From the NCBI GenBank assembly GCA_014730255.1, contig WJIQ01000236.1:1-58719 (forward strand): a DNA stretch of 58,719 nucleotides. The letters run 5' to 3'. Positions within the stretch are counted from its first letter, which is position 1, and the number at the start of each line of letters is the position of its first letter. The notes under the pieces are model-generated. The model did no database searches. It was not told where the DNA came from and saw only the letters and a list, made by a program, of their open reading frames with translations. The DNA is from a bacterium (lineage in GTDB: Bacteria; Krumholzibacteriota; Krumholzibacteriia; LZORAL124-64-63). The position numbers and the translations under genes were made by a program. Positions 17,286-48,221 of the stretch are shown one piece after another.

Positions 17286-17287
17286 GG

Positions 17288-22694: not shown

Positions 22695-23454
22695 GCTCCG
22701 TGGCCGGGGTGTACTCGCGCAGGTTGGCCGCGATGTTGCCCACGGGAAGCTTGGTGGTCATCATCACGGGGATCCGACGCTCGTCGGCCGTGAGATAGAT
22801 CATCAGGTCGCCCTCGTGCTTGAACAGGCCCTCGCCGACCATGACCGGCTGGATGACGAAGCAGTCGAATGTGCCGAAGTCCGTCTCCACCGCCTCCTGG
22901 CGGTGCACGATCACGCGCATGTCGTACGACTCGCGAGAGCTGTGTGCCGAGAAGAGTACGTCTTCGCCCACCTCCAGGTCCAGCGTCCTGACGTAATAGA
23001 AGGCCGACAGGACGTCGTGCACGCCGGAAGGGACGTCGTACTCCTTGCCGTTGTGGTAGCGGGCCTTGCCGGCCTCGTGATCGAACTCGATCTCGACCGT
23101 CTTCTTGTACGGCCCCTCCCGCAGGCGCTTCATGAAGTACCGGCTGAACAGGCGCTGCTCGTCGACGTAGCTCACCACCTTGTCGCGCACGCGGAATATG
23201 CCCGAGAAGAACCCGTTGCTCCGGGCCGTGCTCTCGACACGGTAGCAGGACGAGCCCTCGAAATCGACCATGCCGACGATCTCGAGCACCCCCTCGCCGG
23301 CGTTGATCACGCCATAGTCGATGGAGAAGACCATCCGCTCGCCGACCCCGAACGGCCGGGACGGCGAGGGCTGCTCGCCGTCGGCCCGGGTTCCGTGGGC
23401 GGCCGTGAGCGCGAGGATGACCAGCAGGCTGCGGGACAGGGTAGGGTGTATCAT
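22681..23454 (-). CDS. DUF3108-like secreted protein (257 aa)
   Basis: ORF 22681..23682 with the start moved to ATG 23452-23454 (GGAGGAG RBS). Signal peptide LLVILALTAAHG. The pattern ERMVFSIDYGVINAGEGVLEI...YRVESTARSNGFFSGIFRVRD resembles DUF3108. Confidence 0.55.
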   Translation of the reverse strand: MIHPTLSRSLLVILALTAAHGTRADGEQPSPSRPFGVGERMVFSIDYGVINAGEGVLEIVGMVDFEGSSCYRVESTARSNGFFSGIFRVRDKVVSYVDEQRLFSRYFMKRLREGPYKKTVEIEFDHEAGKARYHNGKEYDVPSGVHDVLSAFYYVRTLDLEVGEDVLFSAHSSRESYDMRVIVHRQEAVETDFGTFDCFVIQPVMVGEGLFKHEGDLMIYLTADERRIPVMMTTKLPVGNIAANLREYTPATERAVD

Positions 23455-23530
23455 GGCTCCTCCTGCAGGGATGCGACGACGTTTCCTGGCGCCAACAGTC
23501 CCGGCGGCGGCCCGGTTCCCGGCGTGGACG

Positions 23531-24691
23531 TCACACCGGAGCCGGGGGGGCGAACGGATGCGCCTGCAGTGCCTGGAGTACCCGTGCGGGCACCAGATCG
23601 GGCAGGCAGATGAAGGCGTCGCACTGGTGGCGATCGCAGGGATGGCAGGCCGGACGGGTCGCCAGGACCCGGTACGGACCATGCCCCTCGTACGGGAACC
23701 ATATCTCCGGCGCGGTGGGACCGAACAGCGCGAGCGTGGGCACCCGCATGCCGACGGCCGCGTGCATGATGCCGCCGTCGACGGTGACCAGGCGCCGGGC
23801 CGCCGCGACCACGGCGAGCGCCTCGGGAAGCGCCAGCACCGGCAGGACCCCCCCGCGGCCGGCCGGAATCGCCCCGGCCAGCGCGCGCCCCACCTCGGGC
23901 CGACCCGGCGGCTGCAGCACGACCGGCGTCTCGCCGGCTCCGGCGAGCTCGCCGGCCACCGTCCGCCAGTGCTCGAGCGGCCACTCCTTGGTGGGCCAGG
24001 TCGCCCCCGGTGCCAGCAGCGTGAACGCCCCGGACGCAGCGTCGAGCTGCTCGAGCTGGGCGGTCACCGACCGGTCCAGGGGCGGTCGGGCGAGGCGTGG
24101 TCCGATCAGGCCGCCCTGCCGCGCCTCGGCGAGCCAGTCCGTGGCCGGCCGCCCGTCGAGCTCCAGCGGAGCGAGGCGCTGCAGGTGATCGGCGAGCCCC
24201 CCTCCCCCGGTCAGCCGCTCGACCAGGGTGCGGACGGCTCCCGGCACGCGCGCGACCCGGTGGGTGTACAGCCGCCCGCGACTGCGGCTCTCCGTCCCGC
24301 CGATCCGACGGGGAATGCCCGCGAGGGCGAGCAGCCAGGCGCTGCGAGGATTGAAGAACAGGTCCACCGCCAGGTCGTAACGCTCCCGACGCAACGCGCG
24401 CACGGTCGCGACCGTCCCCCGCGCCGGGGTGACGTTGGTCGCCACGGCCGCTGCCCTGGCGCGGGCATCGGCACCGCGTCGCCGGGCGCCGAGCGCGTGC
24501 ACGCGCGCGACGTCCGGCTGTCCGGCCAGCACCGTCGCGTGCGACGCCTCGCACAGCACGTCGATCCGGAGATCCGGGTCGCCGCGGCGCAGCATCTCGA
24601 TCACCACGGTCGACATCACGACGTCGCCCAGGTACCGCAGGCGCGTGACCAGGACCCGGCGCAGGGGGCGTCCGTCCAGGCGCCAGCTCAT
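23531..24691 (-). CDS. glycosyltransferase family 9 (heptosyltransferase-like)
   Basis: RVLVTRLRYLGDVVMSTVV and VDGGIMHAAVGMRVPTLALFGPT are GT9 signatures. ATGA overlap with the gmhB stop. Confidence 0.75.
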   Translation of the reverse strand: MSWRLDGRPLRRVLVTRLRYLGDVVMSTVVIEMLRRGDPDLRIDVLCEASHATVLAGQPDVARVHALGARRRGADARARAAAVATNVTPARGTVATVRALRRERYDLAVDLFFNPRSAWLLALAGIPRRIGGTESRSRGRLYTHRVARVPGAVRTLVERLTGGGGLADHLQRLAPLELDGRPATDWLAEARQGGLIGPRLARPPLDRSVTAQLEQLDAASGAFTLLAPGATWPTKEWPLEHWRTVAGELAGAGETPVVLQPPGRPEVGRALAGAIPAGRGGVLPVLALPEALAVVAAARRLVTVDGGIMHAAVGMRVPTLALFGPTAPEIWFPYEGHGPYRVLATRPACHPCDRHQCDAFICLPDLVPARVLQALQAHPFAPPAPV

Positions 24692-25275
24692 GGCCGGTCC
24701 TCCAGCGCGGTCGCGATGGCGGCCGCGAGGTCGGGCCGCACGAGCACGCCCTCGCGATCGACCAGGCGCCGCCGTTCATCCGCGCCGTGGCCGGTGAGCA
24801 CGAGGATCCCGCGCAGGCCCGCGGCCCTGGCCAGGTCGACATCGGAGACCTTGTCACCGATCACCCAGGACCGCGCCGGGTCCCAGAAGAACTCGCGGGC
24901 CGCCTCGTCCAGCAGGCCGGTGCGCGGCTTGCGGCAGGCGCAGCCGTCCTGCGGCGCGTGGGGACAGTAGTAGAAGGCATCCAGCGGAGCATCGGCCGCG
25001 CGCAGGAGCTCGTCCAGGCGGGTCATGACCGCGTCCAGCTCCGCGCGCGCGAAACGGCCGCGCCCGAGGCCCGACTGGTTGGAGACCCCGATCAGCCGGT
25101 AGCCGGCCGCGCGCGCGCGTCGCAGCGCCCCCGCGGCTCCGGGCACGAGTTCGACCTGCGCAGGGTCGGCGAGGTAATCGCGGTCGACGTTGAGGCATCC
25201 GTCGCGGTCCAGGAACAGGGTCGGACGCGGCGTCGCATCACGCGCGGGCGGCTCGATGTCGGGCCATCGCGTCAT
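24688..25275 (-). CDS. gmhB: D-glycero-D-manno-heptose 1,7-bisphosphate phosphatase
   Basis: This is the 3' part of ORF 24688..26124. ATG at 25273-25275 with an ATGA overlap. HAD motif FLDRDGCLN and the GmhB Zn-loop CPHAPQDGCACRKP. Confidence 0.8.
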   Translation of the reverse strand: MTRWPDIEPPARDATPRPTLFLDRDGCLNVDRDYLADPAQVELVPGAAGALRRARAAGYRLIGVSNQSGLGRGRFARAELDAVMTRLDELLRAADAPLDAFYYCPHAPQDGCACRKPRTGLLDEAAREFFWDPARSWVIGDKVSDVDLARAAGLRGILVLTGHGADERRRLVDREGVLVRPDLAAAIATALEDRP

Positions 25276-26381
25276 GGGGCCCCTCCGTCGGGCGCACGGT
25301 CGAGCAGCTGCTCGAGGATCCCGACGACCCGCTCGGCGGTGATCGTCTCGAGGCAGAAACGGGGCTGGTCGCACTCGCGCCGGAAGCACGGCTGGCACGG
25401 GAAGCCGTCGGCCGCCAGGGCCAGCGCGCGTGGTCCGCGCGGCGCGGTCCAGGTCACGCTGCTCGACCCGAACAGGCCCAGCGTCGGCAACCCCAGCGCC
25501 GCGGACAGGTGCATCACGCCGCTGTCGTTGCCGACGTACGCCTCGGCCGCGCGCAGCCACGCGATCAGCTCGGGCAACGACGTGCGCCCGGTCAGGTCGA
25601 CCACCCCCGGCCCGGACGTCGGCGCGTCGTGCCACGGCAGGTCGGCCGTCCGGGCCCGCAACGCGCTCGCCAGCTCCCGGCTCTGGGGATCGCCGGTCAG
25701 CGCCACCCGCCGCCCGCAGCGCCCCACGGCCAGCCGCAACCAGACGGCCTGGTTGTCCACCGGCCACACCTTGGCCGGACCGTACGTCGCGCCGGGCGCC
25801 AGCACCCAGAGCGGAGGTCCCGGTTCGAGCACGCGCGGGGCGATCGCCTCGAGCGCGGGCCAGCGGGGGGACCGGTCGCCGGGTGCCGGCGTCGGCAGGG
25901 TCCCGCCCAGCTCGGCGACGACCGCCGAGGCCAGGTCCCGCAGCTCGTCCGCATGGTGGCGGGAGCGGGGCGGACGGGTCGTGGCAACCGGAGGGGTGAG
26001 CAGCCACGACCGGCCACCCGTCGCCTCGCCCACCCGCACGGGGATGCCCGCCAGACGCGCGGCGAGGGCCGCACGCAGCGACGGGGGCCCGAGCACCACC
26101 GCGTCGACTCCGAGCCGTCGCCACTCACGGGCCAGCCGCACCAGGCCGGCCGTTCCGGCGTGCCGTCCGTCGCGCTGGTAACAGTGCACGCCGGTCAGCC
26201 TGGGGTCGCCCTCGACGAGGGGCGACCAGCGGCGTCGGACCGACACGTGGATCGCGTACGGCCGCCCCGCACCGTCGCGGGCGGCGACGAGGTCGCCGAG
26301 CAGGTCGGAGGCCATGACCACGTCTCCGAGCCAGTTGGGCAGGGCGACGAGGATCGAGCGCGGACCGTCCGGGCCGGTCAT
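25272..26381 (-). CDS. glycosyltransferase family 9 (heptosyltransferase II/WaaF-like)
   Basis: ILVALPNWLGDVVMASDL and GNDSGVMHLSAALGLPTLGLFG are GT9 signatures. ATGA overlaps at both ends. Confidence 0.75.
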   Translation of the reverse strand: MTGPDGPRSILVALPNWLGDVVMASDLLGDLVAARDGAGRPYAIHVSVRRRWSPLVEGDPRLTGVHCYQRDGRHAGTAGLVRLAREWRRLGVDAVVLGPPSLRAALAARLAGIPVRVGEATGGRSWLLTPPVATTRPPRSRHHADELRDLASAVVAELGGTLPTPAPGDRSPRWPALEAIAPRVLEPGPPLWVLAPGATYGPAKVWPVDNQAVWLRLAVGRCGRRVALTGDPQSRELASALRARTADLPWHDAPTSGPGVVDLTGRTSLPELIAWLRAAEAYVGNDSGVMHLSAALGLPTLGLFGSSSVTWTAPRGPRALALAADGFPCQPCFRRECDQPRFCLETITAERVVGILEQLLDRAPDGGAP

Positions 26382-27526
26382 GCGCCGGGCGCCGGCAGCG
26401 GCCCCGAACCGGGCGCCAGGTCGGGATCGTCGGCCCCACCGTCGGGCGCGGCGTCACCGGGCCCGGCGTCGCGCGTCACCTCGCCCACGGTGTCCATCAG
26501 GGTGGCGATGTCCACCTTCTCGCCGCGCGCGATGCGCAGCATGGCGGCCCGCGCGCCCGTCGGCTCCCAGGCCGGCTCGACGTGCGACCCGAACAGCCCG
26601 ACCGTCGGCACGCGCCGCGCGACCGCCAGATGCAGGAGATCCGTGTTGCCGGCGAGGAACAGATCGCATTGCGCCACGAGCAGGAGCGTGTCCAGCAGCG
26701 TGTCGCGATTGAAGGCCGGCGGCACCGGCGAGGTGAGCTCGGACTCGAGGCGTGCGCGGCGATCTTCCTGGCCGGGTACGCAGAGCGGCAGGATCCGGCA
26801 GGAGACCTGCGTCTTGAGCTGACCGGCGATGAACAGGAGATTCTGCGGCGAGACCGCCCGGCCGGAACGGTCCGGGCCCGGGTCGATCCCGACCAGCCAT
26901 TCGTCGGGTCTCGGCTTGTTGAAGTGCACGAGCTGGGCGACCTGCCGGACCTTGTCCCGCGGCAGCGGCCACGCCGTGCGGAAGGGCTGATCCTCCAGGC
27001 CCAGGAAGGGCGCCAGCTGGAGCATCCGGTCGCCGTGGTACCGGGTGCCGTCACCGGCGCGCAGCTCGAGGTTGATGGCCGGCCAGGCCCCGTCGTGCGA
27101 CGGTCCGAGGCGCATGGCCGCCCCGCTGCCCAGCGCCAGGTTCTCCAGGGCCGGGCACGGCTCGTTCGCCACGATCATCGCCACGTCGTAGCCCGTCTGC
27201 GCGAGCGATCGCTGCAGCGACCGGTAGGCCGGCTTCCAGCCGCTGAGCTGCTTCTCGCCGTAGACCAGGACCTGCCGGGCGAGTCCGCTGGGGATGACCA
27301 GCGGCGCGAACGCCTCCGGCACCAGGAAGTCGATGGACGCCCCGGGCCAGCGGCGGCGCATCGCCGCCAGCAGCGGCGCGTGGAACTGCAGCGCGGCGAG
27401 GTCGGCATCGACCAGCACCAGCACCCGCGAGGAATCGTGGATCTGCCCCGGCACCCGGAAGGCGGGCGATTCCCGGTGGCCGGACAGCGCTTGCTTGAGC
27501 TTCTCGAGCACGGGCATCCATCCCAT
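26378..27526 (-). CDS. divergent glycosyltransferase family 9-like protein
   Basis: LFLAGNTDLLHLAVARRVPTVGLFG is a GT9-like C-terminal signature, and the N-terminal half is divergent. The start could be ATG 27526 or 27517. Confidence 0.6.
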   Translation of the reverse strand: MGWMPVLEKLKQALSGHRESPAFRVPGQIHDSSRVLVLVDADLAALQFHAPLLAAMRRRWPGASIDFLVPEAFAPLVIPSGLARQVLVYGEKQLSGWKPAYRSLQRSLAQTGYDVAMIVANEPCPALENLALGSGAAMRLGPSHDGAWPAINLELRAGDGTRYHGDRMLQLAPFLGLEDQPFRTAWPLPRDKVRQVAQLVHFNKPRPDEWLVGIDPGPDRSGRAVSPQNLLFIAGQLKTQVSCRILPLCVPGQEDRRARLESELTSPVPPAFNRDTLLDTLLLVAQCDLFLAGNTDLLHLAVARRVPTVGLFGSHVEPAWEPTGARAAMLRIARGEKVDIATLMDTVGEVTRDAGPGDAAPDGGADDPDLAPGSGPLPAPGA

Positions 27527-34529: not shown

Positions 34530-37500
34530 CTACTTCACGAGCGTCATCTTGAAGGTCTCCGTGGCGCTCGCCTGGCGCGCCCGGACGAAGTAGACCCCGC
34601 TCGCCTGCGTCCGGCCGCGGTCGTCGCGACCATCCCAGGTGAACTCGTGCCAGCCGGGCTGCGCCGCCCCCGTGTGCAGGCGACGGACCTGTCGGCCGCG
34701 CACGTCGTAGACCGCGAGATCGAGGCGCGTGTCCGAGCCCGGCGCGACGTACAGACGCACCGTGGTCACCGGGTTGAACGGGTTCGGACGCGGCGGCAGC
34801 ACGGTGAAGCTGCGCGGCAGCTCGTCCTCGACCGAGACCACGGAGAACTGGTTGGCCAGGCCGGTCCGGCCCGGACGCGCCTGGAACATCGGCCAGGGCA
34901 CGAGCGACGCATCGTACGGCGCCGGCAGATCCCACGCGTGCAGCTCGAGATCCCAGCTGCCGTAGATCAGATCCACGTCGCCGTCGCCCTCGATGTCGGC
35001 GATGACCGGCGTGGACCGGCAGTGGCCAGGCAACGAGATGGGGAAGCCGGCCAGGACCTCGCCCTGGGAGTCATAGGCCGCGATCAGGTCGGGCGTCTCG
35101 GTCTCGTCGCTGCCGATGGGCTGGACGATGTCCGACAGGCCGTCGCCGTCGAGGTCGCCGACGACCGGGCTGCCCTCGCTGTTGGCCGGCAGCTGCACCG
35201 GCCAGCCGGGAAGGATGTCCCCCGAGGTGCCGCCGGCGACGTCGGTGTCGACCACCAGGAGGTCGAGCCGGTACGACCCGCCGTTGACCGGCCAGACGAT
35301 CTCGTAGTCCGGATCGTCGTCGAAGTTGCCCACCGCGGGGCTCGGGCCGGGGCTGTCGTCGAACGGCGCCTCGTGGTTGATCGGGAAACCGGGGTAGAGA
35401 TCCCCGTCCGCCTCGACGACGTAGAGGTCGCGGTTGGTCGTGAAGAAGACGACCTCGCTCGTTCCGTCCCGGTTCAGGTCGGCGACCGCGGGGCTGCAGA
35501 GGATGAAGTGGCCGTCGGTCACGAACGGGAAGCCGGTGGCCTGCCGCCCGTCGTACCGGTAGGCCAGCAGCGCGTTGTCGCCCTCGTAGTTGACCGTGCC
35601 GTAGATGATCTCCGCGGCGCCGTCGCCATCCAGGTCGTAGAGCGCGGCCGACGAGAGCGGCCAGCTGTCGGGGCGATCGACGAAGACGCCGTCGGTGGAC
35701 GGATCGTCGTCGCCGTCGCGCAGCTCGGTCCCGTCGTGATGCCAGACGAACAGGCGGCCCGCCGTGTCCAGCACGATGATCTCGGGATCCTGGTCGCCGT
35801 CGATGTCGCCCACGGTCGGCGTAGCCCAGTTCCAGGCGTCCTGCAGCGTGCGCGGCCACCCGGGCAGCTCGGTGCCGTCGGCCCGGTAGATCACGATCTC
35901 GGGTTCGTCGGCCCGGTTCGAGGCGACGATCTCCAGGCCCGGTTCGCCGTCGAGGTCGGCAAGGGCCACCCCCGAGGGTCCGAACAGACCGCCCACCCCG
36001 GTCAACGGGCCGGTGGTCTGCGCGTTGTTGTCGCCGTCGATCACCTCGCTGCCGTCATGGTTCCAGACGTAGATCTCGTCGGCGGCGAGCACGATCTCCA
36101 GGTCCTCGTCCCCGTCGACGTCACCGACGGCGCTGTGGCCGCTGGTCTGCACGGCGAAGGGCAACGGGAAGTTCTGGATCTCCGACGGCATGGTCGTCTG
36201 GACGGCGACCTCGGAGAACTCCGACTCGATCAGATGCTCGTCGACCGCGGTGATGCGGTACCAGTAGTAGGTCAGCTGCTCGAGGCCCGCGTCCTCGAAG
36301 TACGCGACGCCGGCGATCAGATCGTCGTTGGCCTTGACCCACGGACCATCCGCCGAGGATGCCCGGTAGACGTTGTAGCCGATGATGTCCTCGCCGACCG
36401 CGTTCCAGCGCAGGGCGATGGCATCGGCCGCGATGGTGGCATCGGTCTCCGGCAGATCCGGCGGCGTGACCGTGCGGAACTGCGCGGTCTGGCTGAACGT
36501 GCGGCCGAAGTTGTCCTGGAAGAACAGCTCGAACGGGCTGGCCATGTCGATGTCGTCGATGGTGACGGAGATCTCGCCGTTGTAATCGGTGGACTCGGAC
36601 AGCGGGGCGATGTCGGTGATCAGCACGAAGCTCCCGTGCACCGTCACGCCAGCGGCCGCGTCGACCACCTGCACGGCCAGCTGGTCGAGCCAGCCCGCCC
36701 CGTAGTTCTTCAGCACGGGTCGGACCACGAAGCGCTCGCCGTCCTCGAGCTCGCCGTCGCCGTCGCCATACGGCGCGTCGTCGAGCTCGAGCCGGACCAC
36801 CTGGACCTCCGGGCGCATGACCTCCAGCTCGGTCTCGCTGACCCAGGTCTGACCGCCGTCGTCGGTGACCTCGATGCGCAGCGGCAACGCCGCGCCATCA
36901 CGGACGGTCGTGGCGGACTTGACGCCCACCGGACCCAGCGTGGTGACCGACCCGCCGGGCGGGCAATCCTCCAGCCCCACCGACGCGGTCAGGATGGTCA
37001 GGTCCGGATGCGTCGTGGAGAGGCTGGCGGTCAGGCCGGTGGCGCCGGCCCCGCCGACGTCCGTGAACGTGAGTCCGAGATTGATGGTCTCGCCCGCCTC
37101 GAAGAGCCCGTTGCCGTTGGCGCCGGAATCGTCGAACGTCCGCTCGGCGAGCGCGATGTAGGTCTCGGTGCCGACGACCTCGATGGCCGAGGTCGTGTGC
37201 GCGAGGCCCGCCCCGGAGACCGTCATGGCCAGCTCGCCTGCCGTGGTCGGGATGACCGTCAGGGAGACCTGGCCGGCCTCGTCGCTGACGCCTCGGGAGT
37301 AGACCTCGCCGTCCTTGACGAGGCAGACATCGGCCCCGACGACCGGGCCGCCGGCGGCGGTCACGGTCAGGTCGACGACCTGCTCGCCGGTCGGGATGCT
37401 CGCCGGCGCGGTGACCACCGGCTGCAACGGCTGGCCCGACCACATCGTGATGGCCGGATCACCGAGCGAGACGAGGTTCAGCTGGGTCCAGCGGTCGACC

Positions 37501-39296
37501 GTGTTGCGCTCGGTGTTGGCGATGTAATCGATCCGCGCCCGGTTCAGCGCGACCGCCGGGCGCGGGTCGTCCTCGCACAGCATGTACTGGTAGGCGATCT
37601 CCTGGTATCCGAACGAGTTCGACGGGAACGCCTCGCGCGCCGCCCCGATGGACATGATCGCGCCGCCGTCCGGGTTCTGGACGAACCGCTCGAGCAGACA
37701 CGAGACGTCGAAGGCCCCGGAGGCGCAGTTGATGGCGTACAGCACGAACAGGTTGGGGTTGGTCAGCGCGGCGGCGTCGGACACGGTGAAGTTGCCGTCG
37801 GCGACGGACATGTTGAAGAAATGCCCGTGGCCGAACTGATTGACCTGGCCGTAGTGGCCGGTGTTCAGCGAATCGATGAGCGCCTCGCGGGTCAGGGGCG
37901 CGTCGCGCGGCCAGAGCGCGTCGGTCTCGGCCATGCGCATGTACTCCATCGAGGTGCACGACCCGATGGTCTCGACCAGCCGATCGGTGTACTCCGCCCC
38001 GTCGAGCGTGATCAGATCGCCCGGGTCATAGTCGGCCGGGAAGAGGACCTCGGCCGCGAAGAGGATGCGGTTGGCCCAGCCGGCGCCGACCTCGGCGGTC
38101 TCGTACTGGATCACCTTGTCCACGAACTCGCTCACTCCGCCCGGCGTCCGGACCGGAGCGCGACCGAACGCCATCTCCGGCGCCATGTCGGCCGCATCAC
38201 CCGGGTTGGCGAGGTTGACGTACGGCTCGCCGTACCAGCCGTCTCCGTCGGCCGACCAGTTGCCGTCGAGCGCGGCGTAGTAGAGGTCGGTCGGGATGTC
38301 GGTGTGGCCGCCGTAAGGATAGAACGTGCTGCGGATCACGCGCGTCGGCACGACCTCGGTGTCGCCGCCGATGAGCAGGAACTCGGTCCCCCACTTCGAG
38401 TAGGCGTCGATCAGGAACGTGCGGATCGTCTCCTGGAGATCGGCTCCCTGGCGATAGTTGGCCGAGATCCACTCCGTGGTGACCACGTGGGCCGGCAGGC
38501 CCTGGTCGGTCCGGAAATCGGCGAGGCGCTGGAACTCGCCCGCGAGCGCATCGGTCGTCACGATCAGGTAGCGCACCTCCGAGCCCGAGACGTCCGGCAG
38601 CGGCGCGGGCAGGAACGGACCGCCCGCCTTCTCGAGCCGGACGCCGTCCTCGCGCTGGTAGCCCACGACGGCGGTCGGGTTGTCGACCAGACCCCGCAGC
38701 GCTCGCTCGAGCCGGGCCCGCTCACCGGGCACCAGACGCTCGCGCGCCGTCGGCAGCGGCGGGCGGCGGGTCTCGTCGATCACTGCATGGACGGTGAATT
38801 CCTCGAGGATCTCGATGGTCGGCTCGGCCTCGTCGACCATCGCCCGGAACGGATGCAGGTTCACCGCCAGCAGGCGGTAGCCGCGCCAAGTGTGCAGGCC
38901 GCCGAACGTGCCCCAGGTCGCGGGGAAACGCCCGTCGGCGGTCGCGAGATGGTGCCGAGGCAGCTCGGTCTCGTCGCTCGAGACCAGGGCGCCGGCCAGG
39001 CTCAGTGGACCCGGAGCGACCTCCCGGCGCACCCGGTGCGGTTCGATCCGCACGTCGACGACGGCCAGATCGTCCGGCACGAGCAGCAGCAGGTCGACCG
39101 CGGGCAGGTCCGGCCGATCGGTGACGCCGAGCGGCCGCCCGTCACGATGTTCCAGGAGGAACCCGCCACGACCGTCCGGCGACCAGCCGTAGTCGTCCAG
39201 ATCGACTCGCCCCTCGTACACGGGGGTGGCGAGCGAGCCGGAGACGAGGATCAGTGCGAGGGACAGAAACGCAACCGGGAGCATGCGGGGGATCAT
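34530..39296 (-). CDS. secreted multidomain gingipain-like cysteine peptidase (C25) with FN3, FG-GAP propeller and T9SS-type C-terminal domain (1588 aa)
   Basis: ORF 34530..39368 with the start moved to ATG 39294-39296 (AGGAGGA RBS). Signal peptide MLPVAFLSLALILVSGSLA. A C25-like catalytic pair sits in NQFGHGHFFN (His codon 37827-37829) and LYAINCASGAFD (Cys codon 37725-37727). FN3-like segment ALRWNAV...YNVYRAS...YYWYRITAVD. Eight FG-GAP-like repeats. The C-terminus FNPVTTVRLYV...LAVYDVRGRQVRRL...GVYFVRARQASATETFKMTLVK resembles a Por/T9SS sorting or FlgD-Ig-like domain. Confidence 0.8.
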   Translation of the reverse strand: MIPRMLPVAFLSLALILVSGSLATPVYEGRVDLDDYGWSPDGRGGFLLEHRDGRPLGVTDRPDLPAVDLLLLVPDDLAVVDVRIEPHRVRREVAPGPLSLAGALVSSDETELPRHHLATADGRFPATWGTFGGLHTWRGYRLLAVNLHPFRAMVDEAEPTIEILEEFTVHAVIDETRRPPLPTARERLVPGERARLERALRGLVDNPTAVVGYQREDGVRLEKAGGPFLPAPLPDVSGSEVRYLIVTTDALAGEFQRLADFRTDQGLPAHVVTTEWISANYRQGADLQETIRTFLIDAYSKWGTEFLLIGGDTEVVPTRVIRSTFYPYGGHTDIPTDLYYAALDGNWSADGDGWYGEPYVNLANPGDAADMAPEMAFGRAPVRTPGGVSEFVDKVIQYETAEVGAGWANRILFAAEVLFPADYDPGDLITLDGAEYTDRLVETIGSCTSMEYMRMAETDALWPRDAPLTREALIDSLNTGHYGQVNQFGHGHFFNMSVADGNFTVSDAAALTNPNLFVLYAINCASGAFDVSCLLERFVQNPDGGAIMSIGAAREAFPSNSFGYQEIAYQYMLCEDDPRPAVALNRARIDYIANTERNTVDRWTQLNLVSLGDPAITMWSGQPLQPVVTAPASIPTGEQVVDLTVTAAGGPVVGADVCLVKDGEVYSRGVSDEAGQVSLTVIPTTAGELAMTVSGAGLAHTTSAIEVVGTETYIALAERTFDDSGANGNGLFEAGETINLGLTFTDVGGAGATGLTASLSTTHPDLTILTASVGLEDCPPGGSVTTLGPVGVKSATTVRDGAALPLRIEVTDDGGQTWVSETELEVMRPEVQVVRLELDDAPYGDGDGELEDGERFVVRPVLKNYGAGWLDQLAVQVVDAAAGVTVHGSFVLITDIAPLSESTDYNGEISVTIDDIDMASPFELFFQDNFGRTFSQTAQFRTVTPPDLPETDATIAADAIALRWNAVGEDIIGYNVYRASSADGPWVKANDDLIAGVAYFEDAGLEQLTYYWYRITAVDEHLIESEFSEVAVQTTMPSEIQNFPLPFAVQTSGHSAVGDVDGDEDLEIVLAADEIYVWNHDGSEVIDGDNNAQTTGPLTGVGGLFGPSGVALADLDGEPGLEIVASNRADEPEIVIYRADGTELPGWPRTLQDAWNWATPTVGDIDGDQDPEIIVLDTAGRLFVWHHDGTELRDGDDDPSTDGVFVDRPDSWPLSSAALYDLDGDGAAEIIYGTVNYEGDNALLAYRYDGRQATGFPFVTDGHFILCSPAVADLNRDGTSEVVFFTTNRDLYVVEADGDLYPGFPINHEAPFDDSPGPSPAVGNFDDDPDYEIVWPVNGGSYRLDLLVVDTDVAGGTSGDILPGWPVQLPANSEGSPVVGDLDGDGLSDIVQPIGSDETETPDLIAAYDSQGEVLAGFPISLPGHCRSTPVIADIEGDGDVDLIYGSWDLELHAWDLPAPYDASLVPWPMFQARPGRTGLANQFSVVSVEDELPRSFTVLPPRPNPFNPVTTVRLYVAPGSDTRLDLAVYDVRGRQVRRLHTGAAQPGWHEFTWDGRDDRGRTQASGVYFVRARQASATETFKMTLVK
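34962..36128 (-). repeat. eight FG-GAP/VCBS-like repeats inside the protease gene (protein-level repeat)
   Basis: Repeat cores are VGDVDGDEDLEIV, LADLDGEPGLEIV, VGDIDGDQDPEIIV, LYDLDGDGAAEIIY, VADLNRDGTSEVVF, VGNFDDDPDYEIVW, VGDLDGDGLSDIV and IADIEGDGDVDLIY, spaced about 45-60 aa apart. Confidence 0.75.
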
Positions 39297-39410
39297 GCAG
39301 GTCCTCCTGTATAGGCGCAGGCGCGTTCTCGGGGCGAACATTCGAGGCCGGCCGCGTTCCCGCGACACGGGGCGCCGACCCTCGTGATGGCTCCACTCCA
39401 GAAGATAATG

Positions 39411-42811: not shown

Positions 42812-43963
42812 TCATCGGGTCCCGGCCGCCGGTGCATCCTCGAGCACCCGCCGGTAGACATTAACCGTGGAGTCTGCCGTGGCCTCCCAGGTCCAGTGTT
42901 CGCGTCGCTGTCGCCCGCGGGCGACGAGGTCCTCTCGAAGGGACGGATCGTCCGCCAGACGGTGCAGTCCCTGCACCATCTCGGCCTCCGAATCGGGATT
43001 CACGAGCAGCGCGGCATCGCCCGCGACCTCGGCCATGGCCCCCCGATCGCTCGTCATCACCGGCAGATCGGCTCTCATGGCCTCGAGGATCGGGAATCCG
43101 AACCCCTCGTGGATGCTGGGAAATAGCAAGGCGCGGGCCATTCCATACCGTCGCCAGAGTTCCTCGGGCCCGCAATAGTCGATGACCGTCACCCGACCCG
43201 AGGCGGTCAACGGCTCGAGCACCCCGCGGATCCCGCTGTCGCGCCAGCCACGGCCGCCGACCAGCACCAGGTCGGGCGAGGCGCGGCCCGCGGCGTCACG
43301 TTCGGCCAGGAAGCGCGCGTACGCCCGCAGCAGCCCCTCGAGGTTCTTGCGGGGCTCGAGGGTCCCGACGAACAGGAACGGCGCGTCGTCGGGCCGCGAC
43401 GTGGCGGCCACCGGTCGACCCTGGACCCAGCCCGGGCAACCGAACGGCGTCGCCTCGACCCGATCGGCGATGAGTGGGAAGGTCCGGCGCACGTCCGCGG
43501 CGGTCGCCTCGGAATTGCAGACGATCCGCCGCGCGCGCCGCAGGCTACGGGGAACGATGGCCCGGTAGTACATCCGCCGGGGCTGCTCCACCGTCCCGGG
43601 GAATCGGAGGTAACCCAGATCGTGCACGGTCACCACCAGCGGACAGGGAGCCCGCAAGGGGGCGACGAACTGCATGGTGTGCAGGAGATCGGCCCCGAGC
43701 TCCTCGAGTAGCGCCGGCAGGCGCCATTGCGTCCAGATCGCCTTGCGGAGGGTCCCTCCCACCGCTGCGGGGCACCGGACCAGCCGCCAGCCCGGCCGTC
43801 CGGCGAGGTCGTCCAGCATCTCCGGGTGCGTGCAGAGCACCGCCACGTCGAGACCGCGATCCGCCGACGCGAGCGCCCGCGTCCATTCGATGATCGCCCG
43901 GCCCACCCCGGTGGGTCGAGGCCGCAGCAGCAGCGCGTCGATGGCCACCAGCGGTCGCGTCAA
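42812..43963 (-). CDS. glycosyltransferase family 4 (GT-B, Glycos_transf_1)
   Basis: This is the 3' part of ORF 42812..45442. TTG at 43961-43963 overlaps the upstream stop (TTGA). Signature FPSIHEGFGFPILEAMRADLPVMTS (E-x7-E). Confidence 0.8.
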   Translation of the reverse strand: MTRPLVAIDALLLRPRPTGVGRAIIEWTRALASADRGLDVAVLCTHPEMLDDLAGRPGWRLVRCPAAVGGTLRKAIWTQWRLPALLEELGADLLHTMQFVAPLRAPCPLVVTVHDLGYLRFPGTVEQPRRMYYRAIVPRSLRRARRIVCNSEATAADVRRTFPLIADRVEATPFGCPGWVQGRPVAATSRPDDAPFLFVGTLEPRKNLEGLLRAYARFLAERDAAGRASPDLVLVGGRGWRDSGIRGVLEPLTASGRVTVIDYCGPEELWRRYGMARALLFPSIHEGFGFPILEAMRADLPVMTSDRGAMAEVAGDAALLVNPDSEAEMVQGLHRLADDPSLREDLVARGRQRREHWTWEATADSTVNVYRRVLEDAPAAGTR

Positions 43964-45348
43964 GCCACACCCCCGGGGCGCTCGTCCGCATCGATCAGGG
44001 CGGCGAGCCAGAGTCCGAGCCCGACCCACAGGTGGGGCAGGTTGTACTGCGAGAACACGAGCATCTGGACCCCCATGGCCACGACGGCCACGGCCGCCGC
44101 GGCCAGCCGCCGGCGCGCGGCCGGATCGGTCGCCCACCGCAGCCGTCGCCAGGTCGCACGGAGCCCGGCGGCGAGCGCGGTCGTGGCGACGCCGAGCCCC
44201 AGCAGCCCGGTCTCGCTCAGGATCAGGAGCGGGACGCTGCTGACGACCGGCCAGGTGAACTGGCTGTGCAGGCCCGAGAGATCGACCACGGCGTAGAAAT
44301 GGTACGCGAACTGCCCCCAGCCCACCCCCACCAGCGGCGAGAGCAGGAACGCCCGCCACGCCGCCTGGGCTCCGTAGACCCGGGTGAGGTTCGACCAGTC
44401 GCTCCCGTCGAACACCTGACCGAGCCGCTGCAACGGCAGCAGCAGCGCGTCGACGCCCGCCATCAGGACCACGAGCGCCACGATCCCGGCCAGCGATGCG
44501 AGCACCGGCACCCGGGCCCGACCAGGCGATCCCGGCAAGCCGGCGCGCCGCCGCAGGACGAGCCAGGCCACGCCGCCGACCGCCGCGCCGAGCCAGGCAC
44601 CGCGCGACCACGTGAGCACCAGCAGGAGCACCCCGGCCGCGGCGAGCCACCGCCGTCCGACCACCAGGAGGATCGGCACGACGCCCAGCACGAAGCTGCC
44701 GAGATAGAGCGGCTCGCACATGCTGCCCCGCAGCCGCGGCACGCCGGTGTAGCCGCCCAGATACAACCACTCCGACCCGCTGAGGATCGCCGGATTGCTC
44801 GCGAGGACCCGCTCGAGGGCCGCGACCCAGTCGGCGAGGCCGGCGGTGTGCAGGGCGTGCAGCGGCGCATAGATCAGCTGCGTCGCCAGCCCCACCGCCA
44901 GCCACCGGCCGGTGCGCCGCCAGCGCTCGGCGCCCCGGGTCCAGAGCACCGCCTGGACCGTGAACGCGACCATGACGGCGAGCTGGATCAGCTGGCGGAG
45001 GAACCGCGGCCAGGCCTCGTGCCGGACCACCGGAGACGGCGCCAGCCAGAGGCCCAGGGCCGAGATCCCGACCGCTCCCATCACGGCCACGAGCGCGATC
45101 CAGACCCGCCGATAGCCCGGATCCTTCACCGCCTCCCACAGCGCCCGGCGTCGTTCGCGCGCCACGACGCCGGCCAGTCGCCAGGCCCACAGGAGCGCCA
45201 GCGTCAGGTAGGCCGGCTGCAGTCCGGCGCCGACGTCGATCCCGAGGGTCGACCGCACCAGGCCGACCCCGACCAGGGGCAGGGAGATCAGGGTCGCCGC
45301 CCAGAGCCCGTCGGTCACCGGATCCGATGCGAGGGATGTCGCCTTCAC
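43960..45348 (-). CDS. O-antigen ligase/polymerase-like (Wzy_C) polytopic membrane protein
   Basis: 462 aa with more than 10 TM helices. The loop LTWSRGAWLGAAVGG is typical of the Wzy_C/WaaL family. The GTG start overlaps the upstream stop (GTGA). Confidence 0.7.
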   Translation of the reverse strand: MKATSLASDPVTDGLWAATLISLPLVGVGLVRSTLGIDVGAGLQPAYLTLALLWAWRLAGVVARERRRALWEAVKDPGYRRVWIALVAVMGAVGISALGLWLAPSPVVRHEAWPRFLRQLIQLAVMVAFTVQAVLWTRGAERWRRTGRWLAVGLATQLIYAPLHALHTAGLADWVAALERVLASNPAILSGSEWLYLGGYTGVPRLRGSMCEPLYLGSFVLGVVPILLVVGRRWLAAAGVLLLVLTWSRGAWLGAAVGGVAWLVLRRRAGLPGSPGRARVPVLASLAGIVALVVLMAGVDALLLPLQRLGQVFDGSDWSNLTRVYGAQAAWRAFLLSPLVGVGWGQFAYHFYAVVDLSGLHSQFTWPVVSSVPLLILSETGLLGLGVATTALAAGLRATWRRLRWATDPAARRRLAAAAVAVVAMGVQMLVFSQYNLPHLWVGLGLWLAALIDADERPGGVA

Positions 45349-45884
45349 GACGATGGGGCCCGCCGACGCGCCAGGCGCAGGAGCACGGCCGTGGCCAGAC
45401 CCAGACCCGCCACCAGCAGCAGCGTGCCGCCACGACCTCCATCGCCGGCCGGCGGCGTGCGCCCGTAGCGCAGGCCGCCGCGTTCGACCACGAGCCTGCC
45501 GTCCGCCAGGAGCGCGACCACGCGTCCGTCGTCGATGGTCAGCGGCGTGTCGATGTCGTAGTTGCCGGGGTCCAGGGGCAGGCGTCCGGCGGTCGCGGAG
45601 ATCTGGAGGCTGGCCGCATCGAGCGCGATGGCGAGATCGGCCACGCCCGTGTCCCGCCAGGCGAGCCCGGCGGGCGCCGCGACCACGCCCTCGGGCCAGA
45701 GCAGCGCCGTCCGCGCCAGGTGATCATGATCACGCTGGACGAACGTCCCGTCCGCCGCGCGCGCGCCCTCGATGACGAGCATCCAGCCGGCCGGCGCGGC
45801 CAGGGCCGGCGCCGCCAGGCAAGCCACGACCAGGAGGACGATCACCCGTCTCGATCGCTCGCGATGCTGGATACCTCGCCTCAT
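45345..45884 (-). CDS. hypothetical exported protein with C-terminal TM anchor (179 aa)
   Basis: ORF 45345..46097 with the start moved to ATG 45882-45884. Signal-like VIVLLVVACLAAPALAAPA. C-terminal TLLLVAGLGLATAVLLRLARRR. No clear RBS and no motif recognised. Confidence 0.45.
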   Translation of the reverse strand: MRRGIQHRERSRRVIVLLVVACLAAPALAAPAGWMLVIEGARAADGTFVQRDHDHLARTALLWPEGVVAAPAGLAWRDTGVADLAIALDAASLQISATAGRLPLDPGNYDIDTPLTIDDGRVVALLADGRLVVERGGLRYGRTPPAGDGGRGGTLLLVAGLGLATAVLLRLARRRAPSS

Positions 45885-45948: not shown

Positions 45949-46515
45949 TCAGGCGAACCGGCGCGCCAGGTCCCCCATGTCCCCGGCGAGATCGCCCCCC
46001 CATCCGAGGCAGTGCACGGCGACCCGCGTCCCGGGGACGGCTGCCGACGCCAGGCGCTCGGCGTGCCCTCGCAGCGCCGCCGGCGGCGCGTTGCCATCGG
46101 CCCCCGTCGAGGCCGGCAACCAGGCGATCGTGATCGCCAGCGGCGCGAGCAGCGCCGCCAGCCTGCCCAGGCTCAGCGACGCCGCCAGCGACGTCGCCTC
46201 CACACCCTGGACACACCAGATCAGCACACCTCCTGGTCCGACCCCGTCGTCCAGTCCCTGCTGCTCCCAGCGGCTCAACCGCACCCCGACACGATCGCCC
46301 AGCTCTCGTGGCGACCTCGGCAACGGCACCTCGTCGAGCGCGGCCATCGCCGCCTCGCTCGCATCCATCCCGGGCGACGCGACGATCAGGGCGGGCCGAT
46401 CAACATCGTCCGGCCGGGCCACGGGATCCGGCGAGAGGAACGCGTCGGCCACCGAGGACAGGTGATGCCGCCGGGCTCCGCGCCGGTCGTCCGGTCGTGG
46501 GCTCGCCAGCCCCAT
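45949..46515 (-). CDS. hypothetical protein (188 aa), immediately downstream of the ParA-like gene
   Basis: ORF 45949..46548 with the start moved to ATG 46513-46515, 1 nt after the ParA-like stop. Basic N-terminus RPDDRRGARRHH. No motif recognised. Confidence 0.4.
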   Translation of the reverse strand: MGLASPRPDDRRGARRHHLSSVADAFLSPDPVARPDDVDRPALIVASPGMDASEAAMAALDEVPLPRSPRELGDRVGVRLSRWEQQGLDDGVGPGGVLIWCVQGVEATSLAASLSLGRLAALLAPLAITIAWLPASTGADGNAPPAALRGHAERLASAAVPGTRVAVHCLGWGGDLAGDMGDLARRFA

Positions 46516-46516
46516 G

Positions 46517-47590
46517 TCAGGACACTTGCAGCAGGCTGTTCGAGCCACCGAACTCGTTGGTCACGTTGTGCGCGTTGTGCGGATCGGGCAACCACACGCC
46601 GTCGACGATGAACCGGTACTGGTGCGGACCGGGCTGCACCGGCACGACGCACTCCCACCGGCCGTCCTCGCGGCGATAGAGCGGCGTTCCCTGTCGCGAC
46701 CAGTCGTTGAACGACCCGGTCAACCGGACGTCCTTCGCCCGCGGGAAGTCCGCCACGAACCGCACGCCCTCCGGCGTGATCTCCGGACCATGCAGCAGCG
46801 CGGTCCAGTGATCCAGCGCCGGCACCGTCAGGTCGACCGCCTGATCGGTCACCTCCCGCGCGAGATCCATGAAGTCTCGCGCCCCTCGCGAGCGCGGATC
46901 GTGATCGATGACCGGGATCCCGTGCTCGGCCGCCTCGCGCAGGCGCACGGTCGGATGGATGATCGTCGCCAGGAGCGTGTCGCCGTACACGGCACCGAGC
47001 TCCTCGCGCATCGAACGGGCGTACCGCGAGCGGACGTCGTAATTGGAGAGCAACAGGCGCACGGCGACCTCGTGTCCGCGCCGATCCCGCAGCACGTCCA
47101 GGGTCTCGTGCAGCTTCGTGACCGCCTGGCGGCTGTACGTGCTCGCGTCCACCGGTACGATCACCTCGCCGCTGGCCAGGAGCGCGTTGAAGGTCAGGAT
47201 CCCGACGGCTGGCGGGCAGTCGATCAGGATCACGTCGTACGCGAGATCCGACCGGCGCAGCGTGTCGCGCAGACGATTCTCACGCCCCTCGACCCCGGCG
47301 AGCCGGGCCTCGACGGCACTCAACTCGACCCCGGCCGGCACCAGGTGCAGGCGCGGCTCGACCTCGACCCGCGCGTCCTCGACGAGCACGTCGCTGGTCA
47401 GCAGCAGGTCGTAGGTGGAGAGGCTGAAATCCTGCTCGTGGAGTCCGAGCGCGAGGGTGGCATGGCCCTGGGGATCGCTGTCGATGACGAGCACCTGCTG
47501 TCCCATGCGGGCCAGCGCGGCCGCGAGGTTGACGGCGGTGGTCGTCTTTCCGCATCCGCCCTTCTGATTCGCGAGGGCGATGACTCTCAT
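46517..47590 (-). CDS. ParA/Soj-type P-loop ATPase fused to a C-terminal CBM48/AMPK-beta glycogen-binding-like domain (357 aa)
   Basis: Deviant Walker A ALANQKGGCGKTTTAVNLAAALA, plus VIDSDPQGHAT and ILIDCPP. The C-terminal region (about 46520-46777) reads VRFVADFPRAKDVRLTGSFNDWSRQGTPLYRREDGRWECVVPVQPGPHQYRFIVDGVWLPDP...NSLLQV, matching the GSFNxW...YxF(I/V)VDGxW pattern. ATG start with an AAGGA RBS. Confidence 0.85.
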   Translation of the reverse strand: MRVIALANQKGGCGKTTTAVNLAAALARMGQQVLVIDSDPQGHATLALGLHEQDFSLSTYDLLLTSDVLVEDARVEVEPRLHLVPAGVELSAVEARLAGVEGRENRLRDTLRRSDLAYDVILIDCPPAVGILTFNALLASGEVIVPVDASTYSRQAVTKLHETLDVLRDRRGHEVAVRLLLSNYDVRSRYARSMREELGAVYGDTLLATIIHPTVRLREAAEHGIPVIDHDPRSRGARDFMDLAREVTDQAVDLTVPALDHWTALLHGPEITPEGVRFVADFPRAKDVRLTGSFNDWSRQGTPLYRREDGRWECVVPVQPGPHQYRFIVDGVWLPDPHNAHNVTNEFGGSNSLLQVS

Positions 47591-47729
47591 AACGACATCC
47601 TTTCGTCATGATGCCGGAGTCTGGATGCTCTGCCCGGATGCCTGTCCGTCCGTGGATTCCGGCGGTCCGACCTTGGCCAGATTGGGTTGTTCGCGGATCG
47701 GAATCAGCCAGGGATTCCTCCGCACCCCG

Positions 47730-47760
47730 AGCGTAGCACCCGGTTCGCCACCCCTGTCAA
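47730..47760 (-). promoter_or_regulatory. candidate promoter upstream of the ParA-CBM48 gene
   Basis: Minus strand reads TTGACA-19 nt-TACGCT with a TG 1 nt upstream of the -10 (extended -10-like). AT-rich ATTAAAGATAGCATTAGG lies just upstream. The implied leader is about 130 nt. Confidence 0.35.
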
Positions 47761-47801
47761 GACCTAATGCTATCTTTAATGAAGAAAAGACGGGCCCGGA
47801 T

Positions 47802-48221
47802 TCAGACCACCAGCCAGGCGAAGGCGAGGCCACAGGCGGCTCCCCCGGCCACCTCGGCCCAGGTGTGTCCGACGAACTCGCGGAGCCCCTGCGCATCGAG
47901 ATGGTGGGTTCGACGAAGCTCGTCGACGAGATGGTTCAGGAGGCGTGCCTGATGACCGACCTCCTGGCGCAGGCCCGTCGCCTCGAGCACGACGTACAGC
48001 GCGAACACGAGCACCAGGCTGAAGATGGGATCGCCGACGCCGACGTCATGGCCGACGAGCGCGGCGAGGGTGACCACGGTGGCCGTGTGCGACGACGGCA
48101 TGCCCCCGTTCCGGAAGAACAGCCGCGGCCGCCAGCGTCGGCGGAACAGGAGCTCGAGCGCGACCTTGAGGGCCTGGGCAACCAGGCCGCTGACGATGGC
48201 GAGGACTCCGGCATTGAGCAT
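47802..48221 (-). CDS. divergent PAP2 family (DUF212, acid phosphatase/vanadium haloperoxidase-related) membrane protein
   Basis: NGGMPSSHTATVVTLAALVG, EATGLRQEVGHQARLLN and FVGHTWAEVAGG match the DUF212 pattern. 139 aa. Confidence 0.7.
   Translation of the reverse strand: MLNAGVLAIVSGLVAQALKVALELLFRRRWRPRLFFRNGGMPSSHTATVVTLAALVGHDVGVGDPIFSLVLVFALYVVLEATGLRQEVGHQARLLNHLVDELRRTHHLDAQGLREFVGHTWAEVAGGAACGLAFAWLVV

Follow-up and report, generated by a model that had tools for sequence, protein, structure and literature searches.

A ParA-type ATPase with a built-in AMPK-beta-like carbohydrate-binding module: a recurrent bacterial fusion that may position intracellular alpha-glucan

In bacteria, positioning is generally the task of ATPases of the ParA/MinD family, which act on plasmids, chromosomes, carboxysomes and chemoreceptor arrays as well as on the divisome and flagella; to our knowledge, all cargoes characterised so far are DNA or protein assemblies, each reached through a separate adaptor. 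Here, we describe a gene on the minus strand of a contig from a bacterium of the phylum Krumholzibacteriota (WJIQ01000236.1, assembly GCA_014730255.1; the whole stretch analysed, 58,719 nucleotides, is called the window below), which encodes a ParA-type ATPase fused to a carbohydrate-binding module (CBM) of the CBM48/AMPK-beta type. We propose, with a confidence that we would call about even, that this protein could work as the motor, or the tether, of a positioning system of the ParA type that takes intracellular alpha-glucan (glycogen-like) particles as its cargo.

The closest solved relatives of the ATPase half are Myxococcus ParA (8RAY, 161 bits) and Thermus Soj (1WCV/2BEK), the ATPases of type Ib ParABS systems. 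The fusion is 35-41% identical to these proteins, and the ATPase half of its predicted model superimposes on Soj/ParA structures with a Foldseek template modelling score (TM-score) of 0.90 (normalised to the target). The two also share a deviant Walker A motif with its signature lysine, the Walker A' and B motifs, the equivalents of Myxococcus R209 and R238, most of the pocket that receives the ParB peptide, and a neighbouring gene for a partner with a basic and hydrophobic N-terminal peptide. Unlike the ParABS ATPases, the fusion ends in a CBM48 domain, bears a signature of its own (KGGCGKTT and DPQxH) and lacks an adjacent parB or parS, and its partner is a ParA-fold protein without Walker A motif or a small membrane protein rather than a CTPase clamp.

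The McdA/McdB system of carboxysomes resembles the one proposed here in using a ParA-type ATPase for a metabolic inclusion other than DNA and in having a small, poorly conserved neighbouring partner. McdA is a detectable structural relative of the fusion (6NON/6NOP), albeit a distant one, the match to 6NON/6NOO reaching about 48 bits over residues 1-168 only and ranking well below Soj. McdB is a separate adaptor sitting on the carboxysome, whereas the cargo module of the fusion lies in the ATPase itself; the proposed cargo is a polysaccharide and not a protein shell, and no carboxysome genes are present near the fusion. BcsQ is likewise a ParA/MinD-fold ATPase linked to a carbohydrate polymer, and BcsRQ structures are among the Foldseek matches, but with 21-23% identity and a TM-score of about 0.75, against 0.90 for Soj; the fusion has neither bcs genes nor a BcsR or BcsE partner. 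The C-terminal domain finds its best solved match in the CBM of the AMPK/SNF1 beta subunit (1Z0M, 1Z0N, 4YEF) and keeps W100, K126 (as Arg), W133, G147 and N150 of the latter. In the fusion, however, it is attached to a bacterial P-loop ATPase via a flexible linker, with no kinase scaffold and no alpha- or gamma-subunit-binding sequence after it. Finally, PhaM attaches polyhydroxybutyrate granules to the nucleoid and thereby ensures their inheritance by both daughter cells; it is not known to be an ATPase or to be homologous to the fusion. We know of very little work on the placement and sharing of glycogen granules in bacteria.

Architecture and conservation of the fusion protein

The gene is a single open reading frame (ORF) of 357 codons plus stop, with an ATG start. 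Its GC content at third codon positions (0.89) is in line with that of the real genes of this window of about 70% GC. The fusion is organised as follows:

46517-47590, minus strand: ParA-CBM48 fusion gene (ORF listing; AAA_31, CbiA, AMPK1_CBM and CBM_48 all above the Pfam gathering cut-offs)
46841-47590, minus strand: Soj-like ParA ATPase domain, residues 1-250 (solved relatives, Foldseek, alignments)
46784-46840, minus strand: linker, residues 251-269 (low model confidence at residues 253-267; lineage-specific motif)
46520-46783, minus strand: AMPK-beta-type CBM48 domain, residues 270-357 (Pfam; alignment to 4YEF and 1Z0M)

The first-pass annotation, made from the sequence without database searches, had read the N-terminal half as a ParA/Soj ATPase and the tail as a CBM48/AMPK-beta-like domain, and searches with hidden Markov models (HMMs) bear out both assignments. 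The Pfam family AAA_31 covers residues 1-171 (165 bits) and CbiA scores 65.6 bits; CBP_BcsQ (above its cut-off at 56.9 bits) and MipZ likewise have matches within the N-terminal 250 residues. The motifs KGGCGKTT (residues 10-17), DSDPQGHAT and ILIDCPP are all present in this half. In the tail, AMPK1_CBM matches residues 285-357 (49.3 bits for a gathering cut-off of 26.8, E = 5.8e-13) and CBM_48 matches residues 269-332 (34.1 bits for a cut-off of 22.4), and the motifs LTGSFNDW, PGPHQYRFIVDGVWLPDP and NSLLQVS were all found. The protein reaches the cut-off of no NCBIfam equivalog (ParA_partition, 121.7 bits for 180; BcsQ TIGR03371, 94.3 bits for 157.85). An AlphaFold2 model built from 45 homologues (mean predicted local distance difference test score of 85.4) consists of two confident domains joined by a linker of low confidence (residues 253-267).

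Such an architecture could result from two genes joined by a frameshift or a misassembly, but nothing was found that speaks for this. We found at least 120 clusters at 61-100% identity, from NCBI, JGI, ENA and Logan assemblies, with the same architecture of about 357 residues, which also recurs in 134 of the 150 best representatives and in 80 of the 80 best genome loci described below. Because hundreds of independent contigs encode the identical arrangement, an artefact can be excluded for practical purposes, and the fusion announced by the first-pass annotation is genuine.

The ATPase half possesses the features by which ParA/MinD proteins are recognised: the deviant Walker A with its signature lysine (NQKGGCGKTT, positions 47540-47569), the Walker A' (D37, D39) and Walker B (D124) aspartates, and the Soj/MinD fold. 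Residues K10, G11, G12, G14, K15, T16, D37, D39 and D124 are invariant even among 33 diverse fusions. The Walker A motif reads KGGCGKTT in 107 of 134 fusion representatives, and the next motif is DPQxH, whereas the Soj signatures are KGGVGKTT and DPQGN, i.e., with a valine at the place of the cysteine. Judging from these alignments, the ATPase halves appear to form a clade of their own, marked by NQKGGCGKTT and DPQxH; the signatures KGGCGKTT and DPQxH are specific enough to serve as search patterns.

We mapped residues onto Myxococcus ParA through the 8RAY alignment. R216 corresponds to R238 of the latter, and this position is an Arg or Lys in all 45 close relatives and in 26 of the 33 diverse fusions; R187 corresponds to R209 and is an Arg in 31 of the 33. 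The R238E variant of Myxococcus ParA is devoid of non-specific DNA binding, and six residues of the pocket for ParB have been named in the same protein (PMC12462528). Four of these six positions are still hydrophobic in the fusion (L150 to V129, L152 to I131, L155 to F134 and L187 to V166). The simplest reading of these residues is that the protein would be an active ATPase, able to bind DNA and to respond to a partner. The top Foldseek match to the fusion model is the Soj chain of the Soj-NrdR model 9A6N.

In the tail, residues 285-356 match the CBM structures of AMPK beta1/beta2 (4YEF, 1Z0M, 1Z0N; E of about 3e-11). The residue pairs, with that of the fusion first, are W297/W100, R326/K126, W333/W133, F347/L146, G348/G147 and N351/N150. 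In AMPK beta1, glycogen binding is lost in the W100G and K126Q variants and reduced in W133L and G147R (PMC6274970). The first-pass annotation had made its carbohydrate assignment depend on the sugar-contacting aromatic residues, and these are present: W297 and W333 align with W100 and W133 and are conserved throughout the family. All six residues of the fusion are invariant in 45 of 45 close relatives. Among the 33 diverse fusions, W297 and G348 are found in all, W333 in 32, a Lys or Arg at position 326 in 32 and an Asn or Asp at position 351 in 31, so that the sugar-contact positions rank among the most conserved of the CBM. The domain thus looks able to bind sugar, as far as can be predicted from its residues. 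CBM48 domains of the AMPK type are specific for alpha-1,4/1,6-glucans, which are normally cytoplasmic stores.

The linker contains a lineage-specific motif, A-L-D-H-W-x-A-L-L-H-G-P, which is strict in the Krumholzibacteria-like family (with D260, W262, L266, G268 and P269 invariant in the close family) and absent from other lineages. Residues 259-265 form a short amphipathic helix in the AlphaFold2 model, at low confidence, and the motif might serve for docking or for contact with a membrane. In the family at large, linkers are 8 to 370 residues long (median 67), and the long ones are rich in Ala, Glu, Pro and Ser. This spread in length and composition favours a flexible reach towards a cargo over a fixed allosteric sensor.

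Distribution of the family

Among protein clusters at 90% identity, the at least 120 clusters mentioned above are nearly all of 357 residues and all contain the ATPase and AMPK1_CBM domains; those that carry a name belong to Candidatus Krumholzibacteria. An exhaustive HMMER search was then run against 1.84 billion representatives at 50% identity, and the best 150 matches were examined. In 134 of them, one ParA domain is followed by one CBM; these fusion representatives are 34-61% identical to that of the window (most of them 36-47%). A profile built from the 33 diverse fusions retrieved at least 7,993 matches at E <= 1e-20, of which the top 120 are all fusions, from Omnitrophota, Glassbacteria and the Planctomycetes-Verrucomicrobia-Chlamydiae (PVC) group.

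We also scanned one genome per GTDB species with a full-length alignment of fusions, keyed on the clade signature NQKGGCGK, and describe the best 80 of at least 600 matching loci. All 80 span the full length of the query, and all are located in metagenome-assembled genomes. Their hosts are Krumholzibacteriota, Gemmatimonadales, Latescibacterota, Eisenbacteria, Zixibacteria, Omnitrophota, Planctomycetota (Phycisphaerae, Sedimentisphaerales, Tepidisphaerales and Pirellulales), Myxococcota, Desulfobacterota, Thermodesulfobacteriota, Acidobacteriota, Margulisiibacteriota and others. The survey of the fusion and its surroundings that the first-pass annotation had in mind yields an architecture that recurs across many phyla, with neighbours that differ between lineages.

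Members of the clade without CBM show no Pfam domain in their C-terminal tails, in which we looked for other glucan-binding modules. Several proteins carry between 3 and 18 tandem CBMs closely related to that of the fusion (P0122, of 1,812 residues, P0166, P0244, P0264, P0245 and P0249); from this repetition, they may be multivalent glucan-binding scaffolds. Thousands of fusions are labelled 'AAA family ATPase', 'ParA family protein' or 'chromosome partitioning protein' in databases. The first-pass annotation knew of no experimentally characterised example, and we agree: no paper on the fusion, its partner or a link between ParA and glycogen was found in a search that left subscription journals largely uncovered.

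Partner genes and genomic neighbourhoods

The first-pass annotation had supposed that a built-in module would tie the ATPase directly to its cargo, in place of a separate adaptor. The system is not adaptor-free, because a conserved partner gene almost always adjoins the fusion. Clustering of the ORFs around 88 fusion loci (designated by L numbers) led us to distinguish three types of loci.

Type A comprises 21 loci from Omnitrophota and from some bins labelled Planctomycetales, with genes in the order AlgE-like porin, GH57 glycoside hydrolase, c0, fusion, DUF4870-like membrane protein and c1. The c0 protein (about 190 residues) carries KKDIYEHLAKIYLD as its N-terminal peptide and contains a poly-Lys stretch, a single transmembrane segment and a domain rich in beta structure; nothing matched it in a profile search of a structure library. 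The c1 protein is small and has a long poly-Lys N-terminal tail reminiscent of histone H1, followed by a conserved beta-barrel of about 75 residues that weakly matches domain 2 of EF-Tu (E = 0.008); its gene, the second one after the fusion in Omnitrophota-type loci, is present at L007:8426-8809 and in 21 other loci. The protein may be a nucleic-acid- or polyanion-binding component of the system.

Type B loci have c2 and c6, in this order, after the fusion. This type is found in Myxococcota, Desulfobacterota, the PVC group, Phycisphaerae, Tepidisphaerales, Thiogranum and others. The c2 protein (about 300 residues) has a ParA/MinD fold without Walker A (hhalign probability 96.8%, E = 2e-10) and N-terminal peptides such as KLGRGLSDVSHIFLS, KKLGRGLEDFSHLFLS and KRLGKGLEDVSHLFLS. 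These pseudo-ATPases, with LG(R/K)GLxDVSHLFLS at their N-terminus, are encoded at L006:8101-9030, L008:8070-9053 and in about 22 other loci, always directly downstream of the fusion. The c6 protein weakly resembles the C-terminal domain of NucS (E = 0.002, profile search of the structure library).

Type C corresponds to the window and its close relatives, in which DUF212, the fusion, orfX, orfY, Wzy_C, GT4 and a WecA-like transferase gene form the start of a string that ends with a methyltransferase, a protein without assigned family and a C25 peptidase. Loci L018 and L019 are intermediate between types B and C: DUF212 precedes the fusion and c2 follows it. The neighbours of the fusion in the window are, in the direction of transcription:

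47802-48221, minus strand: DUF212 (divergent PAP2 family) gene (Pfam, 122.5 bits)
47591-47801, minus strand: intergenic region of 211 nucleotides upstream of the fusion (terminator scan, sequence reading)
45949-46515, minus strand: orfX, candidate partner and putative ATPase-activating protein (junction, motif, hhalign)
45345-45884, minus strand: orfY, small protein with hydrophobic N- and C-terminal segments (alignment; 8 close loci)
43960-45348, minus strand: Wzy_C (O-antigen-ligase-like) gene (Pfam)
42812-43963, minus strand: GT4 glycosyltransferase gene (Pfam)

The ATG of orfX lies 1 nucleotide past the stop codon of the fusion (TGAcATG). The OrfX protein, which is 39% identical to its positional equivalent in L001, bears the peptide RRHHLSSVADAFLS at its N-terminus, and its relatives show the pattern R-x-HHI-x-x-IAHHFL. 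Comparison of the orfX family (n = 9) with the c2 family (n = 23) by hhalign gave a probability of 63% and an E-value of 7e-5; when orfX was aligned with just two c2 sequences of the PVC type, no support was obtained outside the peptide. From these profiles, orfX is probably a diverged member of the c2 family.

The N-terminal peptide of the partner differs between the three types: KLGRGLxDVSHLFLS in type B, KDIYEHLAKIYL in type A and HHIxxIAHHFL in the window. A same-strand ORF within 1.3 kb of the fusion carries the pattern in 48 of the 88 loci, against 2 of 2,775 ORFs located farther away; the pattern was derived from these same loci, so these counts indicate specificity and not an independent discovery. 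In L047 (11068-11916), the peptide (KRGLEEISHLFLSS) is joined to a c6-type (NucS-like) domain and not to the pseudo-ATPase. Because it is fused there to a different domain, the peptide behaves as a portable module, one that may bind the ATPase. In Myxococcus, a conserved ParA-binding motif occupies residues 11-19 at the N-terminus of ParB; it combines a central Arg or Lys with large hydrophobic residues, and a 20-residue peptide together with DNA stimulates the ATPase (PMC12462528). No ParB-type gene was detected in the eight neighbourhoods annotated with Pfam or among the window genes scanned, which sets these loci apart from chromosome partition operons.

Genes of alpha-glucan metabolism recur around the fusion in distant lineages. 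Of 76 distant loci, 16 include a GH57 gene; when only the 38 with at least 3 kb of flank on each side are considered, 12 do. The 16 are 11 of the 21 type A loci and, otherwise, L006, L008, L016, L035 and L084, in which positions and orientations differ. At least five arrangements of GH57 are represented in all. In total, 17 GH57 genes were counted in 1.07 Mb of loci, to be compared with a genome-wide density that we assumed to be one to three per genome. The GH57 proteins of L006, L008 and L016 also possess BE_C, the C-terminal domain of branching enzymes. In L016 (10001-16650, Latescibacterota metagenome-assembled genome WVZY01000017.1), the fusion heads a same-strand cluster that continues with a 151-residue ORF, a stand-alone AMPK1_CBM protein of 125 residues (63.7 bits), two glycosyltransferases that match the catalytic domain of starch synthases and a GH57 branching enzyme with BE_C, a second GH57 gene being located farther downstream. 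This is the clearest glycogen-operon context among the loci found. In a Krumholzibacteriota bin, starch and glycogen hydrolases are reported as the most abundant glycoside hydrolases (PMC10936416).

The first-pass annotation had also credited the window gene with its own promoter-like element and with the head position in an operon running into O-antigen-ligase and GT4 genes. The former was not supported. A sigma-70 scan upstream of the fusion, which does not cover the promoter types of this phylum, returned no promoter; the intergenic region contains an AT-rich patch with a perfect TTGACA (47755-47760), without acceptable -10 element, the sole TAnnnT hexamer being situated 19 nucleotides away. 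A weak terminator-like hairpin (47793-47808), of which a part falls in this region, follows the DUF212 gene closely, and 7 nucleotides separate a GGATG Shine-Dalgarno sequence from the ATG of the fusion. As to the operon, the fusion and orfX are separated by 1 nucleotide and orfX and orfY by 64, while orfY/Wzy_C and Wzy_C/GT4 each overlap by 4 nucleotides, a spacing that fits a single predicted transcription unit from the fusion through GT4. The order Wzy_C/GT4 is repeated in L001 and L003-L005, but the link is limited to the Krumholzibacteria-like lineage and is not a property of the family. The orfY gene, 42% identical to its equivalent in L001, is specific to this lineage, and its product is probably located in the envelope. 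The DUF212 neighbour is conserved in the same lineage and in three distant loci (L018, L019 and L060).

Other genes of the neighbourhoods may be mentioned. In L039, L059, L079, L087 and L088, all from Myxococcota and Thiogranum, the gene immediately before the fusion, on its strand, encodes a MerR-type helix-turn-helix regulator. An upstream ORF taken as an NrdR seed proved to be such a MerR-type regulator; an ATP-cone (NrdR-like) domain was detected in 6 of 117 neighbour proteins, in loci other than those of Omnitrophota. The rest of the 58.7-kb window is housekeeping. On its minus strand, a 1,157-residue protein with the PF13941 'MutL' domain (368 bits) is encoded beside a 656-residue DUF6754 protein (309 bits) at 13187-18602. 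A 1,612-residue protein encoded at 34530-39368 combines a C25 (gingipain-like) peptidase domain with FG-GAP repeats and, at its C-terminus, an FlgD_ig domain; the C25 peptidase gene ends the conserved string downstream of the fusion in all Krumholzibacteria-like loci. Positions 21090-27526 of the same strand contain a run of envelope-glycan genes, with GT9 heptosyltransferase-like genes (23531-24691, 25272-26381 and 26378-27526), a DUF3108 gene and a PMT_2-family glycosyltransferase, which suggests a lipopolysaccharide-core-type region about 20 kb from the fusion.

Proposed function and alternatives

The computed domain identities, residue conservation, linker variability, partner adjacency and glucan gene context are the basis on which we infer the steps of dimerisation, DNA binding, sugar binding, activation and cellular outcome. 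The ATP-bound fusion would dimerise on the nucleoid, each dimer offering two CBMs on flexible tethers, and many dimers would hold a glucan granule by avidity. The N-terminal peptide of the partner would set off ATP hydrolysis and release. Through repeated cycles, granules could be kept attached to the nucleoid and distributed over its length, and granules dispersed in this way would be inherited by both daughter cells.

Several observations weigh against this proposal. The carbohydrate link drawn by the first-pass annotation receives independent support from the GH57, glycogen-synthase-like and stand-alone CBM neighbours in distant phyla, and it is strong for the family; it is indirect for the window genome, because a glucan-metabolism gene lies near the fusion in none of the 12 loci of its lineage, where the neighbours are envelope-glycan genes (DUF212, Wzy_C, GT4 and the WecA-like transferase). 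In type A loci, the membrane-anchored c0 and the adjacent AlgE-like porin point to the envelope and not to the nucleoid. The remaining two of the six positions of the ParB pocket are not conserved. The ParB motif is LG(R/K)GLxALL, which we take to be similar to the start of the c2 peptide, LGRGL; a search of the partner peptide against PDB sequences returned only chance matches to PRDM9 zinc-finger linkers and did not confirm the likeness, which is for this reason a lead and not a result. Finally, bacterial glycogen granules are usually small and numerous, so that a need for active positioning is not obvious.

The main rival is that the ATPase organises envelope glycans in a BcsQ-like manner, localising or scaffolding a membrane complex for the synthesis, export or import of a glycan; the CBM would hold a glucan chain, nascent or imported, or else some glycosylated component. 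Besides the CBP_BcsQ match, this explanation is supported by the tight packing of the fusion with DUF212 (PAP2-like), orfY, Wzy_C, GT4 and the WecA-like transferase in a lineage-conserved order, by the AlgE-like outer-membrane porin, the DUF4870-like membrane protein and the membrane-anchored partner with its extracytoplasmic beta-rich domain in Omnitrophota-type loci, and by the nucleotide-sugar enzymes upstream of the fusion in L006 and the Wzy_C gene near it in L008. However, the envelope genes vary by lineage and none is family-wide, no bcs genes occur in any of the annotated neighbourhoods and the score for the BcsQ equivalog falls well short (94 bits against 158). The nearest structures are chromosomal Soj/ParA and neither BcsQ nor MinD, the DNA-binding arginines are conserved, no family-wide membrane-targeting helix was seen, and the alpha-1,4/1,6-glucans targeted by AMPK-type CBM48 domains are normally cytoplasmic. 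We therefore consider an envelope role unlikely, while giving it more weight than the two explanations that follow.

The kinship of the CBM with that of AMPK beta, which lets AMPK sense glycogen (PMC2642990), brings to mind a glycogen sensor. Glucan binding would then tune the ATPase activity, dimerisation or DNA binding of the fusion and couple carbon stores to nucleoid organisation, segregation or the choice of division site, without any movement of glycogen. The proximity of the ATPase half to chromosomal Soj/ParA would suit such a role, and the conserved linker helix of the close family (ALDHWxALLHGP) could dock on a domain. A sensor nevertheless fits poorly because linker length varies 40-fold, and low-complexity linkers of up to 370 residues are hard to square with a defined allosteric coupling; the neighbourhoods examined contain no parB, min or division genes, and the dedicated partner and neighbouring glucan enzymes suggest a self-contained module. 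A sensor role accordingly seems improbable to us. Slightly more improbable still is that the C-terminal E-set domain has lost its sugar binding and acts as a protein adaptor, for instance to a complex around c2 and the NucS-like c6. E-set/CBM48-like folds are reused for protein contacts elsewhere, in type B loci the fusion is always accompanied by c2 and c6, both without carbohydrate signature, and most loci have no glucan gene nearby. This explanation fits poorly because it is exactly the residues in contact with sugar in AMPK beta1 that are the most conserved positions of the CBM across phyla; moreover, GH57, synthase-like and stand-alone CBM neighbours recur.

Returning to the positioning of alpha-glucan, the fusions could belong to an unrecognised ParA/MinD class for cytoplasmic alpha-glucan granules, with thousands of members in at least 12 mostly uncultivated phyla, a built-in cargo module and a new partner family, a possibility that we rate somewhat below even. 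It may be the first ParA-type system whose cargo is a sugar polymer instead of DNA or a protein body. What is new here is a ParA/MinD ATPase with a built-in polysaccharide-binding module and a partner family of its own, found among sequences already present in databases. If the proposal is true, carbohydrate stores would join the inclusions that bacteria position actively, and the wiring would be different from that of known systems, with the ATPase itself holding the cargo and the partner supplying only an activating peptide. The family gives the question of glycogen placement a concrete handle, and it is abundant in Omnitrophota, Planctomycetota, Krumholzibacteriota and phyla related to them, for which very little cell biology has been described.

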